21,029 bases of DNA from Candidatus Iainarchaeum sp. GTDB taxonomy: Archaea; Iainarchaeota; Iainarchaeia; Iainarchaeales; Iainarchaeaceae. This document shows positions 2,924 through 21,029 of the stretch, in pieces (positions within the stretch are counted from its first letter, which is position 1; each line of letters opens with the position of its first letter). A program made the translations under genes and the position numbers. The stretch lies in contig JBDRLP010000029.1 of the NCBI GenBank assembly GCA_043812975.1, positions 1 through 21,029 of the forward strand, in the 5' to 3' direction. Below the pieces are notes generated by a model. It worked only from the letters and a program-made list of their open reading frames with translations, had not been told where the DNA came from and did no database searches.

Positions 2924-4416
<1,493 letters not shown>

Positions 4417-4421
4417 TTCGC

Positions 4422-5336
4422 ATGCTTAAAACAAAATTCTGCAACCTAAACCTAAACAACCCAACCAGACTTGCATCCGGAATAATGGGAGTAAACGCAG
4501 GACAGCTTATAAGAGTGGCAAAAGAAGGAGCAGGAGCTGTTACAACGAAAAGTATCGGCCCAAAAGAACGCAAGGGTCATAAGAATCCTGCAGTAATTGA
4601 ATGGGAACATGGTTTACTGAACGCAGTTGGTTTGCCAACTCCAGGCTATAAAAATACTGAAGAAGAATTTGAAGAATTAAAAGCACTGAAGAAAAGTGGT
4701 GTTCCTCTTATTGCAAGCATTTATGGAAGTAAAGTAAGTGAATTTCTGGAAGTAGCAGAATATGTTGCTTCAAAAAAACCAGAAGCAATTGAATTAGATA
4801 TTTCATGCCCAAACACAGAATGGGGCGGAACACAGTTTGCATGTGACCCTGAAATAAGTCACAAAATAATTTCAAGTGTCAAAAATGTCGTGGGGAAAAT
4901 TCCTGTAATTGCAAAACTAACTCCAGCAGCAACAAGTCCTATAGCAGTAGGAGTTGCTTGTGAAGAAGCAGGAGCTGATGCAATCTGCGCAGCAAACACA
5001 ATGCCAGGAATGATAATTAACATTGATGCTAGAAAACCAATTTTAGCTTTCAAGAAAGGTGGAATGTCAGGACCTGCATTAAAACCAATTAATTTGAAAA
5101 TTGTTTACGAACTTTACGGAAAAGTAAAAGTTCCAATAATAGGAGAAGGTGGAATCACTAATGGAAGAGACGCTCTTGAATATGTGATGGCTGGTGCTAC
5201 ATTATGCGGAATTGGAAGTGCTGTTTACAAACATGGTTCGGGAGTTTTCAAAAAAACAACTGGCGAAATAGAAAAGTGGCTGAAGGAAAATAGTTATTCA
5301 AAATTAAGTCAAGTAAGAGGAATTGCTCATGAATAA
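4422..5336 (+). CDS. pyrD: Dihydroorotate dehydrogenase family 1B catalytic subunit
   Basis: ASG, TTKS, LNAVGL, ISCPN, AKLTP, NT, GGMSGPALKP, GGI. ATG 4422 follows SD-like GTGAT; GTG 4413 is the alternative start. Confidence 0.95.
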   Translation: MLKTKFCNLNLNNPTRLASGIMGVNAGQLIRVAKEGAGAVTTKSIGPKERKGHKNPAVIEWEHGLLNAVGLPTPGYKNTEEEFEELKALKKSGVPLIASIYGSKVSEFLEVAEYVASKKPEAIELDISCPNTEWGGTQFACDPEISHKIISSVKNVVGKIPVIAKLTPAATSPIAVGVACEEAGADAICAANTMPGMIINIDARKPILAFKKGGMSGPALKPINLKIVYELYGKVKVPIIGEGGITNGRDALEYVMAGATLCGIGSAVYKHGSGVFKKTTGEIEKWLKENSYSKLSQVRGIAHE

Positions 5337-6186
5337 AAAAGAATGCAAAGGAAACTGTAGCTGTGATGAGTGGCCTTCAGAAACCAAAACAAGAATGGTT
5401 GAAATAGAAAAAGTTCGCGAAGAATTCCCAGGAAATAAAACTTTTTTTATGAAAGAAGAACTTGAATTTGAACCTGGGCAGTTTGCAATGATTTGGCTTC
5501 CAGGAGAAGATGAAAAACCAATTGCATTAATACCTAACGGAAAAAAATACGCACTTAATATTGAAGGAAAAGGCGGAGCAACAAAAAAGATTCTAAAATT
5601 CAAGAAAGGTCAGAAATTAGGGGTAAGAGGACCTTATGGAAAAGCATTTTCTTTGAAAGGAATCAAAAAAGCTTGTATTATTGCAGGCGGAGTTGGTATT
5701 GATTCAATAATCCTGCTTGCACAAAAACTTAAAGAGCAAAAAGCAAAAGTAAAAATTATTCTTGGAGGAAGGAATAAAGAAAGAATTATTTTTGAAAAGG
5801 AACTCAAAATAACCGGAGAAGTATACATAACAACTGATGATGGTTCTTATGGGGAAAAAGGATTTAATGTACAGGTTCTTGAAAGACTCCTGAAAAAGGA
5901 AAAATTTGATCTTATTTATGCTTGTGGGCCTGAAATAATGACAATAAACGCATTAAAAGTGGCTCAGAAGTATAATATGAAGTTTGAAGGATCATTAGAA
6001 AGGTACATGAAATGCGGGATAGGCATATGTGGCCAGTGCGTGGTAGATGACAAACTTGTTTGTAAAGATGGCCCTGTATTTTCGGGAAATGAATTAAGCA
6101 AAATGAAAGAATTTGGAAAAACAGCTTATTTGAAAAGCGGCAAGAAAGTTTCGCTTAAAGATTACTATGCGTGGAGAGACGAATGA
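5329..6186 (+). CDS. pyrK: Dihydroorotate dehydrogenase electron transfer subunit
   Basis: PGQFAM, VRGPYG, AGGVG, TDDGSYG, YACGP, and 2Fe-2S motif ERYMKCGIGICGQC...CKDGPVF. Confidence 0.95.
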   Translation: MNKKECKGNCSCDEWPSETKTRMVEIEKVREEFPGNKTFFMKEELEFEPGQFAMIWLPGEDEKPIALIPNGKKYALNIEGKGGATKKILKFKKGQKLGVRGPYGKAFSLKGIKKACIIAGGVGIDSIILLAQKLKEQKAKVKIILGGRNKERIIFEKELKITGEVYITTDDGSYGEKGFNVQVLERLLKKEKFDLIYACGPEIMTINALKVAQKYNMKFEGSLERYMKCGIGICGQCVVDDKLVCKDGPVFSGNELSKMKEFGKTAYLKSGKKVSLKDYYAWRDE

Positions 6187-7451
6187 ACCTCGCACTAATA
6201 AATGGAAAAGTTTTCATTAAAGGAAAGCTGGTGAAAACAAATATTCTGCTTCAAAATGGAAAAATCAAAAAAATTACTTCTTCAAAAATAAAAGCAGAAA
6301 AAGAAATTGATTGTAAAGGAAAAATAATTCTTCCAGGAGCAATAGATGTACACGTACATTTCAGGAGCCCTGGATTTGAGTATAAAGAAGATTTTTTCAG
6401 CGGATCATTAGCAGCACTTCATGGAGGCATCACAACAATAATGGATATGCCAAACACACAACCTGTTACCTCAACAGTAAAAGCACTTGAAGCAAAAAGA
6501 AAATTTGCTGGAAAAAACTGCCTTACAAATTTTGAAATTTACATAGCTGCACTAAATAATAATCTTGGCGAAATTTCTAAAGCAAAAAATATTCGCGCAG
6601 TAAAACTTTATTACGGTTCTACAACAGGAAATATTTTAATGAATAAAGAAACAGCAATTAAAAAATTGTTCAAAATTGCAAAGAAAAAAGGATTCGTGGT
6701 TGTAATTCATGCAGAAGATGAAGGAACAATAAAACAAAATGAAGAAAAATTCAAAAAAAGCAATAATCCAGGAGTTCATGCAAAAATAAGAAGTGAAAAA
6801 GCCGAAGTAAAAGCGATTTCGGAAATACTTTCAATTCAAAAAAAGATTGGAAACAAAATCCACATAGCGCATATTTCCTCAGAAAAAGGACTTGCTCTTA
6901 TTAAGAAAGCAAAGAAAAGAAAATTCGGAAAGCAAATTACCTGTGAAGTAACACCGCATCATTTATTTTTAGATTCTTCAGATTACAAAAAACTTGGAAA
7001 CCTGATAAAATGCAATCCTTCAATTAAAGAATCAAAACATAGGAAAGCACTCTTTAATGGTTTGAAAAATGGAACAATAGATATTGTTGCAACAGACCAT
7101 GCTCCGCATTCTTTTAAGGAAAAAAAACAAGGTTATTGGAAAGTACCTTCCGGAATTCCGGGGGAAGAAACAATGCTTCCCCTTTTGCTTGACACAGTGA
7201 ACAAAAAACAAATTTCTTTGAAAAGAGTTGTTGAAGTTATTTCTGAAAAACCAGCACAAGTTTTTGACTGGAAAAAAAAAGGATTCATTAAAACAGGATT
7301 TGATGCGGATCTCGTGATTATGGACATGAATGGAAAATACAGGGTTGAGAACAAGAAATTGTTCACAAAAGCAAGGTATTCGCCCTGGAACAAGAAAACA
7401 TTAAAAGGACACATTGAAAATACTATAATAGGAGGACAGGTTTTTGGGTGA
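6183..7451 (+). CDS. pyrC: Dihydroorotase (type I, amidohydrolase)
   Basis: PGAIDVHVHFR.PG, DMPNT, HAED, HIAHIS, CEVTPHHL, NP, ATDHAPH. ATGA overlap with the pyrK stop gives start 6183. Confidence 0.95.
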   Translation: MNLALINGKVFIKGKLVKTNILLQNGKIKKITSSKIKAEKEIDCKGKIILPGAIDVHVHFRSPGFEYKEDFFSGSLAALHGGITTIMDMPNTQPVTSTVKALEAKRKFAGKNCLTNFEIYIAALNNNLGEISKAKNIRAVKLYYGSTTGNILMNKETAIKKLFKIAKKKGFVVVIHAEDEGTIKQNEEKFKKSNNPGVHAKIRSEKAEVKAISEILSIQKKIGNKIHIAHISSEKGLALIKKAKKRKFGKQITCEVTPHHLFLDSSDYKKLGNLIKCNPSIKESKHRKALFNGLKNGTIDIVATDHAPHSFKEKKQGYWKVPSGIPGEETMLPLLLDTVNKKQISLKRVVEVISEKPAQVFDWKKKGFIKTGFDADLVIMDMNGKYRVENKKLFTKARYSPWNKKTLKGHIENTIIGGQVFG

Positions 7452-7461
7452 AGAAAAAATA

Positions 7462-7740
7462 ATGCTTAATGAACCAGAAATCGCAGAAATTATAAGGATT
7501 GAAAATTCTAGAAAGACAATGGAAGCAAGCGTGCTTATAGCAAGAAAAGCGAAAGCAATAGCTGATCAAAGAGGGTGCAACAAAAAAGCAGTCATACTAG
7601 CGATTGTTAGACAAGCAGGGTTAACCCCAGTATTGAATGAAATTTTGCTGAATCCAAAAGGAAAAGGTCCCCACGGACGAGCACAAAGAGAAAAAAAACA
7701 TAAAGAACTATTTGGTAGACCAAGTAAAAGAAGGTACTGA
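7462..7740 (+). CDS. Small basic hypothetical protein (92 aa) inside the pyr operon
   Basis: Fills the pyrC-pyrE gap. SD GGTGA (7447-7451) precedes ATG 7462, and the stop lies 1 nt before the pyrE ATG. No recognisable motif. Confidence 0.65.
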   Translation: MLNEPEIAEIIRIENSRKTMEASVLIARKAKAIADQRGCNKKAVILAIVRQAGLTPVLNEILLNPKGKGPHGRAQREKKHKELFGRPSKRRY

Positions 7741-7741
7741 A

Positions 7742-8359
7742 ATGACCAACGAAGAATTAGCATTAAAACTCCATGAAATAGGAGCAATAAAATTTGGATT
7801 ATTTACGCTTAAGTCAGGGTTGAAAAGCCCTATTTACATAGACCTCAGGGTTTTGATTTCTTATCCAGAAGCTTTGAAAATGGTTGGAAAAGCTCTTGGA
7901 GAAAAAGCAGAAGGCCTGGATTTTGATTTAATTGCAGGAATTCCTTTTGCAGCAATTGCAATAGCAACAGCAGTCTCACTTGAAAAGAACTGGAGAATGG
8001 TTTTCCCAAGAAAAGAACAGAAGGAATACGGAACAAAAGCAAAAGTAGAGGGAAAATATTCTAAAGGAGAAACATGCTTAGTAATAGATGATTTGATTAC
8101 TGATGGCGGAAGCAAGTTTGAAGCAATAGCACCTCTTGAAAAAGAAGGTTTGAAAATCAAAGATGTTATTGTTCTTGTTGACAGGGAACAAGGAGGCAAA
8201 AAAACTCTTTTGAATGAAGGTTATCATTTGTATTCAGTTTTCAAAATAACAGAATTACTGGAAATACTGCACAAACACAAAAAAATTGATGAACTTATTT
8301 ATGAAAGTACAAAAAAATATTTTGAAGACCCAAAAAAATGGCACGGTGATTCTGAATGA
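7742..8359 (+). CDS. pyrE: Orotate phosphoribosyltransferase
   Basis: FG.FTLKSG.KSPIYIDLR, RKEQKEYGT, LVIDDLITDGGS, VDREQG. Confidence 0.96.
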   Translation: MTNEELALKLHEIGAIKFGLFTLKSGLKSPIYIDLRVLISYPEALKMVGKALGEKAEGLDFDLIAGIPFAAIAIATAVSLEKNWRMVFPRKEQKEYGTKAKVEGKYSKGETCLVIDDLITDGGSKFEAIAPLEKEGLKIKDVIVLVDREQGGKKTLLNEGYHLYSVFKITELLEILHKHKKIDELIYESTKKYFEDPKKWHGDSE

Positions 8360-9060
8360 GTACAATAAAAATAGACAAAAGTATTGTGCCAGCATGTGAT
8401 TTTGATTCACTGGAAGAATTTGAAAATCTTGTAAAAGAAACTGCAGGAGTTGAAGGAATCGGAGCCTACAAAGTAGGTTTTGAACTCGGGTTAAAATATG
8501 GTTTGCCAAAAGTTGTTGAGGTTGCAAGGCAGCATACTGATAAACCAATTATCTACGACCATCAAAAAGCAGCAACTGATGTTCCGTTTACAGGAGAAAA
8601 GTTTGCAAAAGTTTGTAAGGAAGCAGGAATCAACACAGTAATTCTTTTTCCACAGGCGGGTCCCGAAACAGAAATTGCGTGGATAAAGGCCTGCCAAAAA
8701 GAAGGTTTGGGAGTTATTATCGGAGGAGAAATGACTCACCCTGGTTATTTAGAAAAGGAAGGGGGATTCCTAAGAGATGATGCTCCATTGAAAATGTATG
8801 AAATTGCAATAGAACACGGAGTAACTGAATTTGTGGTTCCCGGAAATAAACCGGAAAAAATCAAGAAATATAAGGAATTTTTTGATTCAAAAGGAATTGA
8901 TGCAGTACTTTATTCCCCAGGTCTTGTTGCGCAGGGAGGAAGCATTTCTGCTTCCGGAAAAGCCGCAGGTTCAAAATGGCATGCAATTGTAGGAAGAGGT
9001 ATCTACAAAGCTGACGATAAAAAGAAAGCAGCAGAAGAACTTTCAAGCCAGTTGAAGTGA
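8356..9060 (+). CDS. pyrF: Orotidine-5'-phosphate decarboxylase (divergent)
   Basis: ACD, YKVG, variant catalytic motif YDHQKAATDVPFT, MTHPG, VPG, SPG..AQGG, IVGRGIY; last gene of the pyr operon. Confidence 0.88.
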   Translation: MSTIKIDKSIVPACDFDSLEEFENLVKETAGVEGIGAYKVGFELGLKYGLPKVVEVARQHTDKPIIYDHQKAATDVPFTGEKFAKVCKEAGINTVILFPQAGPETEIAWIKACQKEGLGVIIGGEMTHPGYLEKEGGFLRDDAPLKMYEIAIEHGVTEFVVPGNKPEKIKKYKEFFDSKGIDAVLYSPGLVAQGGSISASGKAAGSKWHAIVGRGIYKADDKKKAAEELSSQLK

Positions 9061-17776: not shown

Positions 17777-18262
17777 ATGCCATTACCAAAGAGACAGACA
17801 ACAAGAGCTGCAGCTGCTAAAAAGCCAGCCGCTTCTAAGGGTGGAAGTCCAAAAAAGCATCACGCCTACCCCGGAATAGTAAGATTGCACATGAGGGAAA
17901 CTCCTTTTTCAACAAACGAAACTTCAAGGAAAACACTGGAAATCGTGCATGAACTCCTCACAAAAAAAAGAATACTTGAAAGAATACCGTTGCGCTTTGG
18001 AGAGGAAGAAGAATTAGAAATGAAAACTGAAACAGTATTCAGGGAAGGCGGGGATTTATTCGCCAGAAACATTACAGGCCAAAGAAAAGCTGGACTGAAA
18101 AAACAAATTCATGTAATACTGCAAGATCTTATTCTTCATTATGGCCAATACCTTACCCCCAAGGAATTACATCAAATCAGTAGAACTCTCCTGGATTCAA
18201 TAAATAGTAGAAAGGAAACAGTTGGAGGAGACCCTCCCAAAAACAAGCGAGGTACTTGGTAA
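17777..18262 (+). CDS. Hypothetical protein, paralog B of tandem pair
   Basis: 161 aa; same shared motifs; basic low-complexity N-terminus MPLPKRQTTRAAAAKKPAASK. Confidence 0.8.
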   Translation: MPLPKRQTTRAAAAKKPAASKGGSPKKHHAYPGIVRLHMRETPFSTNETSRKTLEIVHELLTKKRILERIPLRFGEEEELEMKTETVFREGGDLFARNITGQRKAGLKKQIHVILQDLILHYGQYLTPKELHQISRTLLDSINSRKETVGGDPPKNKRGTW

Positions 18263-18354: not shown

Positions 18355-18984
18355 ATGAAATACACTATTGTTAATATTGTTGCTTCGGCAAATTTGAATA
18401 CAACTATTGATTTATACAACTTGGCTATTACAATTCCCAATATCGAATATGAGCCAGAACAGTTCCCAGGAGCAATCCTGAAACTAAAAGAACCAAAAGT
18501 ATCAATGCTTCTTTTCAAGAACGGAAAAGTAATCTGCTCAGGAGCATCAAGCGAAATACAAATACCACAGGCAATTTACAAAGCCTCAAAAATGATACAC
18601 GAAATACAAAAGAATGTAAAAATACAAAAGAACGCAGATTATACAGTTGTAAACCTAGTTACAACAGCTAATCTACACATGACACTTGATTTGTTCAAAA
18701 CAGCAATGGAATCTGATAACGTTGAGTATGAACCTGAACAATTCCCAGGCGCTATTCTAAGAATTCATGATCCAAAGCTAACATTATTGCTGTTCAAGAA
18801 CGGAAAACTGATTTGTGCAGGAGCAAAAAACGAAGAACTCTTAAAAAAAGGTTTGAGAAAAGCCTCAAAAATGATAAGAGAAATTAATGCTCCAACAAAA
18901 CCAAAAAAAGCAGCAACTACGAAGTCCCCGCAAGGGAAAAAAGCAGATGCAAAGAAACCTGTGACAAAAGCTAAGAAGAAGTGA
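18355..18984 (+). CDS. tbp: TATA-box-binding protein
   Basis: Two internal repeats VN.V..A...YEPEQFPGA....PK...LLF.NGK.IC.GA; Lys/Ala-rich C-terminal tail. Confidence 0.97.
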   Translation: MKYTIVNIVASANLNTTIDLYNLAITIPNIEYEPEQFPGAILKLKEPKVSMLLFKNGKVICSGASSEIQIPQAIYKASKMIHEIQKNVKIQKNADYTVVNLVTTANLHMTLDLFKTAMESDNVEYEPEQFPGAILRIHDPKLTLLLFKNGKLICAGAKNEELLKKGLRKASKMIREINAPTKPKKAATTKSPQGKKADAKKPVTKAKKK

Positions 18985-19183: not shown

Positions 19184-19263
19184 AATTCACTGTTTTTAGG
19201 GCAATATTTGGAAAATTTGGCTGAATAGTTAGTAATATATTATAATATTTAATATTATTAGCG

Positions 19264-21029
19264 ATGAAGCCTGCTTGGCTGGGGCTGGGGGTAATAGCCT
19301 TATTATTAATCGGCTTTGTCTCAAGCCAAGATACAAACATTCAAAACAGTCCCGCACTTGCTGATGGGAATAGCCTAAACCTTATTGTCAACTTTAATAC
19401 TGCTGATGCTAATTCAACAACGCCTGAGGAAGATACTAATTCAATAATTCCTGATGAGAATATATTTGCAGAAGAAACTGATTCAAATAATCTTAACCCA
19501 ACATTAACATTTATTCAGCCATTAAACCTTGAGGTTATAAGCGGAGTAATAAAAATAATTGTCTCGCTGCAAAATTTTGGAATAATAACAGCAAACTGGT
19601 TTCACATAAATAACATTGACTTCAATACAATCATAACAAAAAACATTTTATCAGTGGACATCAACACCTTGGATTTCAATAACAACTTATACAAATTAGA
19701 AGCAAATGTTTGTGATGAAGAAAAATGTTATTCGGAAATTATTAGTGTGACAATAGAAAATGATTTGAATACACAACAGACAATAAAACAACAAGACCAA
19801 AACACAAGCATTGGTGTTACACCCCTTGATGAAAATTCAACTATAAGTGATACAAATAATTCAATTGACCAGAATGTTGCGGTTATTGATGCAAACAATT
19901 TTACAGAACCGGAAAACAAAGATACCAATGCTATTAGTCCTAACCAGAACAAGGAAACACACACCGCACAAAAAAACAATTCAAACAACCAGATTTCATT
20001 TGACAGGCACCTTGACTGTCACAGGTGTGGTCAACATAAAGCCCCGCCAAACACAGAGATAAATATGACTATCTCAGTGACAGACGCAAATGTTAACAAC
20101 ACTTTTTTTGTTGATTATTTTCCAGTTGAATGGGAAATAGTTGATGCCAACAACGGGTTGGTTGAATCATTTGATTCTGAATACAACAAAATCTCTTGGG
20201 AAATAATATCTCCAACAACAGAAATTGAAAAAAGTTATGTGGTAAAAAGCCCATCGCTTACAAGCCCACCGACAAAATACTCATTCTACACAGAATTAGG
20301 AGCAGAAACATCAGCACTATGGAATATAATAGTTGCTGACCCCGAAACGCTTTATCTTACATCTGGAGCAGGCGATGCATGTGGTGTTGGAAGCGATGAA
20401 GCATTAAGCGGAACTGCTGGTGCGAGCAATGCAACAAAACTGGTTGCCACAACAGGGGATTCCTGGACTTTTGTTGAATCAGCAAGGTCAATTGCTACCG
20501 GGACATGGGATGTTTACCTTGACTTAACACACGATAATTCTGGAGGCCAGGGTTCTGAGAGAGATACAAGAGTTTTGTTAAGGCACATGAACAGTTCTTG
20601 TGTTGAACAGGCAATTTTAATAGACGTAACTCAACAGCCGGGTAAAGGAGCCACTGCAGAATTCACTTTTGAGGCCACAAGTGTTGCACAAATAGACTAC
20701 ACAGCAGGGGACATTTTGCTTTTAGAAGTCTTTAACCCAAATGCTGCGGAAAACACAGTATATTACAACAATTCAACCTCTGCTTACGATTCAAGAATAG
20801 TTCACCCTGCAGAGATTATTCCTAACGTCGCACCTGATATTACAGGTTCAATAACCAATGATGGTTCGGTTTACCATGGCACTGCCATTACTTTTACCGG
20901 TGCTTGTACAGATGCAGGTGATAATTTCAGGTTAGTTGTATGCAGGAATGGTGCAACGTGTGATTCAACAACAAGCGGTGCAGATTTAATTTGTGCAGGT
21001 TCAAACGGAACTGATACAACTCCTAGTTG
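19264..21029 (+). CDS. Large secreted/cell-surface protein, 5' part (>588 aa, runs off the window); not in ORF track
   Basis: ATG 19264, with no in-frame stop to the window end (read codon by codon). Signal peptide MKPAWLGLGVIALLLIGFVSS; N/T/D/S-rich linkers; beta-rich Ig-like segments (PTLTFIQP...YKLEANVCD, NVAPDIT...ITFTGACTD); several paired Cys. Confidence 0.9.
   Translation, partial: MKPAWLGLGVIALLLIGFVSSQDTNIQNSPALADGNSLNLIVNFNTADANSTTPEEDTNSIIPDENIFAEETDSNNLNPTLTFIQPLNLEVISGVIKIIVSLQNFGIITANWFHINNIDFNTIITKNILSVDINTLDFNNNLYKLEANVCDEEKCYSEIISVTIENDLNTQQTIKQQDQNTSIGVTPLDENSTISDTNNSIDQNVAVIDANNFTEPENKDTNAISPNQNKETHTAQKNNSNNQISFDRHLDCHRCGQHKAPPNTEINMTISVTDANVNNTFFVDYFPVEWEIVDANNGLVESFDSEYNKISWEIISPTTEIEKSYVVKSPSLTSPPTKYSFYTELGAETSALWNIIVADPETLYLTSGAGDACGVGSDEALSGTAGASNATKLVATTGDSWTFVESARSIATGTWDVYLDLTHDNSGGQGSERDTRVLLRHMNSSCVEQAILIDVTQQPGKGATAEFTFEATSVAQIDYTAGDILLLEVFNPNAAENTVYYNNSTSAYDSRIVHPAEIIPNVAPDITGSITNDGSVYHGTAITFTGACTDAGDNFRLVVCRNGATCDSTTSGADLICAGSNGTDTTPS

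Follow-up and report, generated by a model that had tools for sequence, protein, structure and literature searches.

Why should 18 of the 22 aspartates in the first 300 residues of an archaeal surface protein each be followed, two positions later, by an asparagine? The protein in question (hereafter the target) is encoded at the end of a 21,029-nucleotide stretch of DNA (the window), which is the whole of contig C29 (JBDRLP010000029.1) from a Candidatus Iainarchaeum sp. genome. This genome of 1.24 Mb (68 contigs, 35% GC, 94% complete) belongs to the Iainarchaeota and thus to a DPANN archaeon. We find that selection maintains Asp-x-Asn (D-x-N, with x the middle residue) as a tag on some of the surface proteins of Iainarchaeota throughout the lineage, the S-layer protein included. 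Our preferred explanation, held tentatively and with a probability of roughly 0.4, is that D-x-N is the lineage's acceptor motif for modification of asparagine, the likeliest form being N-glycosylation that relies on a PglB-like Asp at position −2 and is relaxed at +2.

Excess of Asp-x-Asn in the target

The motif had been picked out in a sequence-only reading of this DNA, and its counts were reproduced exactly: residues 1–300 contain 22 Asp, 48 Asn and 18 D-x-N, comprising DTN and DAN (four each), DEN, DFN and DQN (two each) and DGN, DSN, DIN and DLN (once each). The Asp and Asn composition of the region fails to explain this number, as none of 20 000 composition-preserving shuffles reached 18, either over residues 1–300 (shuffle mean 3.5) or over residues 23–296 (mean 3.8), and the reverse motif, N-x-D, occurs only twice. 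The rest of the protein, residues 301–588, has 20 Asp and no D-x-N at all, and N-x-S/T in the target is at its expected level (13 vs 12.2). That the motif is not a tandem DNA repeat, as had also been claimed, follows from a Tandem Repeats Finder run on positions 19200..21029, which gave just two short arrays (Table 1).

Twelve of the 18 sites fall in two linkers with a low predicted local distance difference test score (pLDDT), and all 12 Asp of these linkers are part of a D-x-N; where we call the linkers disordered, the label reflects low pLDDT and composition in a model that is poor overall. For the first linker alone the shuffle mean was 1.19, and 0 of 5000 shuffles reached the observed six. 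Although this linker cannot be aligned across homologues, every one of them is rich in D-x-N there.

Distribution across the proteome

We counted the motif in a set of 1098 crude open reading frames (ORFs; ATG start, at least 100 amino acids, overlaps removed greedily). The whole proteome so defined has 795 D-x-N against 897 expected (observed/expected 0.89), and because this total lies below expectation the excess is not a genome-wide bias. The eight lowest per-protein binomial p-values (4e-8 to 3e-3) all belong to signal-peptide or surface-type proteins, namely the target, its paralogue on contig C25, two more proteins from the same C25 cluster, a VWA-domain protein (C27), a 202-amino-acid secreted protein (C36), a pilin-like protein (C17) and a 1027-amino-acid protein (C44). 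Several families are represented among them, including S-layer (TIGR01564, PF05124; folds 3u2g and 9fsa), VWA, Ig/MG2-like and unknown. Asp stands at −2 of 109 of the 392 Asn in these eight proteins, as against 455 of 10 084 in cytoplasmic ORFs, and the ratio of D-x-N to N-x-D is 109:15 in the former and 456:494 in the latter.

Other parts of the envelope look different. Three large surface proteins (1560–2553 amino acids; Table 1) are poor in D-x-N, with 3, 3 and 2 sites against 9.6, 10.6 and 5.5 expected, and membrane proteins show a weak depletion (65 D-x-N vs 101 N-x-D; Fisher p 0.035 against cytoplasmic ORFs), which is suggestive of D-x-N avoidance in other envelope proteins of this genome. 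When signal-peptide proteins were binned by position along their length, no general hot spot remained after the signal peptide once the eight were removed. Two of the three D-x-N-poor giants have nearly the same acidic N-terminus ahead of a membrane helix.

The S-layer protein and conservation in the lineage

The 1027-amino-acid member of the eight is an S-layer protein. It scores 48.5 bits against TIGR01564 (cut-off 25) and 45.2 bits against PF05124 (cut-off 23.9), and has both the S-layer N- and C-terminal domains and the DUF1608-like fold. Foldseek matched its AlphaFold model (25-sequence alignment, mean pLDDT 77.6) to the DUF1608 domain of a Methanosarcina S-layer protein (3u2g) and to the S-layer anchoring domain of Methanococcus voltae (9fsa) with probability 1.00, and a profile match to 9fsa was obtained at E 2e-7.

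All 25 full-length orthologues from the same order carry 7–17 D-x-N where 4–6 are expected, with N-x-S/T near expectation. The same holds more widely, the 68 S-layer homologues from public genomes having 827 D-x-N vs 336 expected (and 257 N-x-D), 129 E-x-N vs 182 and 899 N-x-S/T vs 824. The two residues of the motif are gained and lost together at most well-populated sites: at one, both are present in 27 sequences, neither in 34, only D in two and only N in two, and at a second the corresponding numbers are 37, 24, 5 and 1, although these counts are phylogenetically non-independent and alignment-dependent.

Homologues of the target tell the same story in the relatives G015 (27 D-x-N vs 6.0 expected), G020 (20 vs 4.5), G026 (26 vs 6.0) and G006 (6 vs 0.6). 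The gene next to the G026 homologue encodes a 247-amino-acid protein with 10 sites vs 1.2 expected, and cytoplasmic-looking ORFs adjoining target homologues in the relatives have none.

Two loci (L087 and L088) from records titled as Chloroflexota or Chloroflexi bacterium encode a full-length S-layer protein of the Iainarchaeota type (31–32% identity over 1–1024), and are probably mis-binned archaeal contigs.

Behaviour as a linear motif and flanking residues

The segment leading from the signal peptide to the first conserved domain is unalignable between homologues and Pro-rich in most. Within it D-x-N takes up 6 of 6 Asp in the target, 6 of 8 Asp in G015, 4 of 6 Asp in G006 and 2 of 2 Asn in the C25 paralogue, numbers reached by 0, 0, 6 and 18, respectively, of 5000 shuffles each. 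Runs of the motif after the signal peptide are also seen in the database homologues P0009 and P0147, the latter with 42 D-x-N vs 6.2 expected, and in a small lipoprotein of G038. A motif that is kept while the sequence around it turns over, in segments that are probably unfolded, looks like a recognition site and unlike an element of a fold.

Flanking preferences were read from 12 homologues with 199 sites between them; these proteins came from other genomes and had been picked for their D-x-N richness, so that the flanking positions alone are informative. Pro is avoided on both sides of Asn, with 2 vs 8.5 expected at the middle position and 2 vs 8.5 at +1, and the exceptions are isolated (e.g. 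DQNP in G015). Acidic residues are depleted immediately after Asn (D 2 vs 13.5, E 3 vs 10.7), Gly is depleted at +3 (5 vs 15.8) where Asp is in 1.6-fold excess, Lys is nearly absent from −6 to −3, −1 and +2, and the middle position favours Leu, Met and Ala. Glu is no substitute for Asp, the 12 homologues having 24 E-x-N vs 37 expected.

N-x-S/T and D-x-N in homologues outside the lineage

An exhaustive homologue search listed 150 proteins, mostly found through the second conserved domain of the target, of which the 113 of at least 300 amino acids were analysed. Forty-eight have N-x-S/T at 1.6 or more times expectation (2059 vs 858 expected) and D-x-N near expectation (266 vs 277). Eleven, two of them from this genome, have D-x-N at two or more times expectation (157 vs 44) with N-x-S/T at 127 vs 110; each group was defined on one feature and is to be read on the other. 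Four proteins are rich in both motifs and 50 in neither. Two of the N-x-S/T-rich homologues are labelled Aenigmarchaeota, and most homologues are unlabelled, too sparsely for the groups to be assigned to phyla. The target family thus exists in an 'N-x-S/T-decorated' form and a 'D-x-N-decorated' form. This suggests, though only by analogy, a shared purpose for the two motifs.

AglB and other candidate machinery

The genome has a complete-looking set of N-glycosylation genes. Its one STT3-family gene encodes a 657-amino-acid AglB on contig C49, and AglB was found in all 41 relatives searched. At this locus, genes for Alg14-like (150 amino acids) and Alg13-like (198 amino acids) proteins lie on the minus strand and AglB on the plus strand, followed by the gene of a multi-pass membrane protein that looks AglH/GlcNAc-1-P-transferase-like. 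From our reading of the sequence, the Alg13- and Alg14-like neighbours would be of the chitobiose-core type.

In the review PMC7226087, the WWD motif and the DK Lys are described as binding the +2 Ser/Thr, and R331 of PglB, equated with D362 of the yeast enzyme, as contacting the acid at −2. Among 28 relatives the WWDxG motif reads WWDEG in 22, WWDYG in two, WWDQG in one and WWN in three; of 27 relatives, 22 keep the DK-type Lys and a further two have Arg in its place. A Lys 11 residues after the Glu of external loop 5 (EL5) is invariant in all 19 Iainarchaeal AglBs and would be at most a candidate counterpart of PglB R331; the AglB profile matched PglB (3rce) at E 1e-4.

Three AglB loci from three families (L147 in G013, L154 in G023 and L160 in G031) have WWN for WWD together with Ala or Ser for the DK Lys, a paired change in the +2 Ser/Thr pocket that is unusual for STT3-family enzymes.

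A second GT-C-like protein is encoded on contig C63 between two GT4 genes; it is a multi-pass protein of 509 amino acids with a weak PMT_2 match below the curated cut-off. Its gene type was found in 26 of the 41 relatives, frequently sharing a contig with AglB, and was rejected as the reader of D-x-N because this distribution mismatches that of the trait, the gene not being found in the D-x-N-rich G038 (99% complete) or G035. Processing by an asparaginyl endopeptidase was likewise set aside, there being no Peptidase_C13 match in the 94%-complete genome. Single in-frame stops (TAA, TAG or TGA) interrupt otherwise full-length matches to AglB in G006, G002 and G012, and to the GT-C-like protein in G008, G015, G019, G009 and G027.

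Asn modification as the preferred explanation

We propose that D-x-N may mark asparagines of extracellular Iainarchaeota proteins for modification after translocation, the carriers being the S-layer protein, large adhesin-like proteins such as the target, the VWA protein and small secreted proteins. The lineage's single AglB would be the leading candidate enzyme, performing N-glycosylation; it would favour or depend on Asp at −2 in the manner of bacterial PglB, would not accept Pro at either position next to Asn, and would allow residues other than Ser/Thr at +2. Three parts of this proposal we infer from sequence: the modification of Asn itself, its identity as a glycan and the role of AglB as the enzyme. 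The sequence-only reading had suggested an Asn-modifying enzyme that reads D-x-N, and what survives of that suggestion is a selected, protein-level motif that is sequon-like, since it is confined to extracytoplasmic proteins and kept by selection even in linkers that cannot be aligned; the part that fits poorly is the AglB +2 pocket, which looks intact.

An S-layer protein of the same architecture in Candidatus Micrarchaeum harzensis is positive by periodic acid–Schiff (PAS) staining and heavier than its Escherichia coli-made form, according to a preprint (10.1101/2021.04.28.441871), so that DPANN S-layer proteins of this family can be glycoproteins; the sites are unmapped there.

The closest known parallel is the Campylobacter PglB sequon, D/E-X1-N-X2-S/T. 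The Iainarchaeal motif resembles it in having Asp, one of the two acids of that sequon, at −2, in avoiding Pro at both X positions and in occurring in flexible segments of translocated surface proteins. It differs in that Asp alone is enriched at −2, E-x-N being at or below expectation in both the S-layer homologues and the 12 D-x-N-rich homologues, and in that the Ser/Thr required by PglB at +2 is present at about a quarter to a third of sites. The oligosaccharyltransferases differ too, the Iainarchaeal enzyme being an archaeal AglB with a DK-type motif where PglB has MxxI.

With the canonical N-X-S/T system of AglB and STT3 this genome shares its single AglB, which carries WWDxG and a DK-type Lys and is encoded beside Alg13/Alg14-like and apparently AglH-like genes, and many homologues of the target in other lineages are loaded with N-X-S/T. 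The difference lies in the Iainarchaeota surface proteins themselves, in which N-X-S/T remains at expectation and D-x-N is 2.5–4 times over. To our knowledge, no STT3, AglB or PglB enzyme characterised so far acts without a hydroxyl residue at +2.

There is nevertheless precedent for an S-layer Asn being glycosylated without Ser/Thr at +2 or without AglB: Asn-2 of the Halobacterium salinarum S-layer glycoprotein is N-glycosylated independently of a sequon, and the low-salt pathway of Haloferax volcanii is independent of AglB. These haloarchaeal cases concern single sites and not a proteome-wide motif, and we know of no Asp(−2) rule for them. The general O-glycosylation system of Bacteroidota, with its experimentally shown motif D-(S/T)-(A/I/L/V/M/T), is likewise a lineage-wide three-residue motif that starts with Asp and occurs on many extracytoplasmic proteins, but there the glycan is O-linked to the Ser/Thr right after Asp, and the phylum is bacterial.

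Several observations weigh against Asn modification by AglB. The first set concerns the enzyme and the residues around Asn. The sequence-only reading had proposed looking for altered WWDxG or DK motifs, and the outcome was negative: the single AglB of this genome keeps WWD (as WWDEGHW) and the DK-type Lys, leaving an altered AglB with a lost +2 pocket unsupported. The +2 pocket of this enzyme seems intact, which counts against a simple model in which reading of +2 has been lost. Despite an AglB that is canonical where it can be judged, Ser/Thr occupies +2 at only four of the 18 target sites (the number originally claimed to complete DxNx[S/T]), at 35 of 109 sites in the eight D-x-N-rich proteins of this genome and at 51 of the 199 flank-analysis sites, in which it is mildly favoured over a background of about 18%. 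Unlike in the PglB sequon, moreover, Glu is not accepted at −2.

The second set concerns distribution. Enrichment in secreted as against cytoplasmic proteins, which the sequence-only reading had proposed to test, was borne out for the eight surface proteins and is absent from cytoplasmic ORFs, but it does not extend to the (crude) signal-peptide class as a whole (224 vs 216 expected), and some large surface proteins are poor in the motif. Signal-peptide-type proteins other than the eight have 115 D-x-N vs 185 expected, a figure biased by the removal of the eight on the very feature counted. Pilin-like proteins lack enrichment, and the depletion in membrane proteins was not seen in 400 kb sampled from the distant relative G038 (15:15). 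Nor are D-x-N and N-x-S/T anticorrelated among homologues (Spearman −0.04, p 0.73, 76 homologues).

The third set comes from the S-layer protein, in which about eight D-x-N sites are conserved in 17–20 of the 25 orthologues across sequences only 30–35% identical. The +2 residue at these sites varies or is a conserved hydrophobic (L, V or Y/F), and the sites look more like structural positions than typical glycosites.

Alternative explanations

The main alternative is that D-x-N is a structural element with nothing attached to it, in which the Asp, as residue i of an Asx-turn, caps the main-chain NH of residue i+2 and Asn starts a beta strand or helps to bind a cation, thereby stabilizing or rigidifying the beta-sandwich domains and the S-layer lattice. 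The conserved S-layer sites, with their often hydrophobic +2, fit this idea, as do several sites that lie at loop-to-strand transitions in the S-layer model. It is also in keeping with the hydrophobic/polar alternation that follows Asn in the eight D-x-N-rich proteins, where V and I are favoured at +1 (2.6- and 1.8-fold), T/S at +2 and I, L and Y at +3 (3.1-, 1.7- and 2.1-fold), as in a strand beginning at Asn. A role for calcium would have parallels, since it is established that surface structures of both archaea and bacteria can depend on calcium for their assembly (PMC12518558).

Set against this, 12 of the 18 target sites, and nearly all Asp or Asn of the Pro-rich linkers of its homologues, lie in unalignable segments with pLDDT below 50. 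The motif spans unrelated folds, 13 S-layer sites share no single secondary-structure context, and homologous domains outside the lineage do without D-x-N. Neither do the flanks suit calcium loops of the EF-hand-like DxDxDG or cadherin DxNDN type, as the Iainarchaeal motif lacks further acids and Gly at fixed positions, with acids depleted at +1 and Gly at +3. The calcium-binding or Asx-turn option, which the sequence-only reading had kept as its own alternative, is therefore compatible with sites in folded domains and a poor fit to those in linkers, and we consider it less likely than Asn modification.

A linear motif with some other role is more doubtful again. Such a role might be a different modification of Asn or Asp, docking to a partner such as the S-layer or the surface of a host cell (attachment to hosts is common among DPANN archaea), or a site of processing. 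The evidence for a linear motif serves this reading just as well, since it says nothing about the chemistry; as AglB has a +2 pocket that looks canonical, the motif could have a different reader, and the GT-C-like membrane protein on C63 could be counted in favour. Against it stand the patchy occurrence of that GT-C-like gene and its apparent absence from two genomes with D-x-N-rich surface proteins, the missing Peptidase_C13 match, and the literature, in which the listings from full-text searching showed no paper on a D-x-N-only sequon or on glycosites in Iainarchaeota, and no known partner or enzyme reading D-x-N.

Finally, an origin in chance, amino-acid composition, low complexity or a DNA-level repeat, for which one could cite the Asn-rich target region (48 of 300) and the AT-rich genome, is already excluded by the shuffles, by N-x-D of equal composition (2 vs 18), by the lack of a tandem repeat and by the recurrence of the excess both at conserved protein positions and in orthologues from genomes of differing GC (G038, 43%).

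The target and its locus

The target ORF is open at the contig end. Pfam and NCBIfam searches assigned it to no family, and its AlphaFold model, built from an eight-sequence alignment, is poor overall (mean pLDDT 45.7); the confident parts are a beta-sandwich at about residues 95–165 and a second domain at about 264–356, with pLDDT below 50 at 17–76, 168–242 and 359–588. Domain 1 is common to the target, the C25 paralogue and the relatives G015, G020 and G006, and its site at residue 132 is kept in four of five aligned sequences, the fifth having E-x-N. Of all parts of the protein domain 2 is the most widespread, residues ~240–362 being matched by most of the 150 listed homologues, and its sites at 274 and 294 are not conserved in P0002, P0003 and G002. 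Over its final 70 residues the target shares 90% identity with an internal segment of the 1578-amino-acid C25 paralogue, and because of this near-duplication an unresolved repeat shared with that paralogue probably ended contig assembly here.

Upstream genes in the window are for pyrimidine synthesis, housekeeping functions and the TATA-binding protein, and none is related to glycosylation. The TATA-binding protein has a basic, Lys/Ala-rich C-terminal tail of about 30 residues, and the ORF just upstream, which has no family match, starts with a similar basic Lys/Ala/Pro-rich stretch.

Table 1. Positions of the target, its parts and other features mentioned in the text. Positions are in the window unless a contig is named.
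Feature	Position	Strand	Observations
Target ORF, 588 amino acids	19264..21027	+	
Signal-peptide-like N-terminus, residues 1–21	19264..19326	+	Hydrophobic; model helix 4–15; aligns with homologue N-termini
Linker 1, residues 22–76	19327..19491	+	D-x-N holds 6/6 Asp: 23, 34, 48, 57, 64, 73; pLDDT <50 (17–76)
Region first described as D-x-N-rich, residues 23–296	19330..20151	+	
Beta-sandwich domain 1, residues 77–167	19492..19764	+	D-x-N at 119, 132, 137, 167; strands 95–164 pLDDT 70–87
Linker 2, residues 168–242	19765..19989	+	D-x-N holds 6/6 Asp: 178, 189, 196, 202, 209, 220; pLDDT <50
Cys-containing conserved domain 2, residues 243–358	19990..20337	+	D-x-N at 274, 294; pLDDT 66–91
C-terminal part, residues 359–588	20338..21027, to contig end	+	19 Asp, 13 Asn, zero D-x-N; low pLDDT throughout
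Last 70 residues of target	20818–21027	+	
Matching segment of C25 paralogue	C25 23037–23249	−	
Tandem array	19237–19258		Upstream of start
Tandem array	19771–19807		Period 16, 2.4 copies
Pyrimidine biosynthesis row	2939–9060		Aspartate carbamoyltransferase catalytic and regulatory chains, dihydroorotate dehydrogenase and Fe-S subunit, dihydroorotase-like amidohydrolase, phosphoribosyltransferase, orotidine monophosphate (OMP) decarboxylase
ORF upstream of TATA-binding protein gene	17777–18262		
TATA-binding protein	18355–18984		
S-layer protein	C44:38852–41935		
AglB locus (L010)	C49 12411–16430		
GT-C-like protein	L182 1204–2733 (C63 ~33554–35083)		
D-x-N-poor surface protein	C23:2583–9854		
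D-x-N-poor surface protein	C5:4751–12412		
D-x-N-poor surface protein	C5:1–4681		

Implications

In its fullest form our proposal is that Iainarchaeota glycosylate their cell coat at Asp-x-Asn (x not Pro), a signal that no oligosaccharyltransferase is known to use and that would be read N-terminal of the acceptor Asn and independently of +2, and that would replace N-x-S/T as the main site, the reader being either the WWDEG-type AglB or an unrecognised enzyme. We regard this full statement as possible but rather doubtful. If it is true, an Asn chosen by an upstream Asp alone would widen the rules of N-glycosylation and would offer a new short tag for glycoengineering, and the prediction of glycosites in DPANN archaea would change, as counting N-x-S/T would miss sites. 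Should D-x-N prove to be structural instead, it still characterizes the surface proteome of this uncultured lineage across the phylum and can be used to recognize its exposed proteins, among them the S-layer protein and the adhesin-like proteins that likely mediate cell contact.

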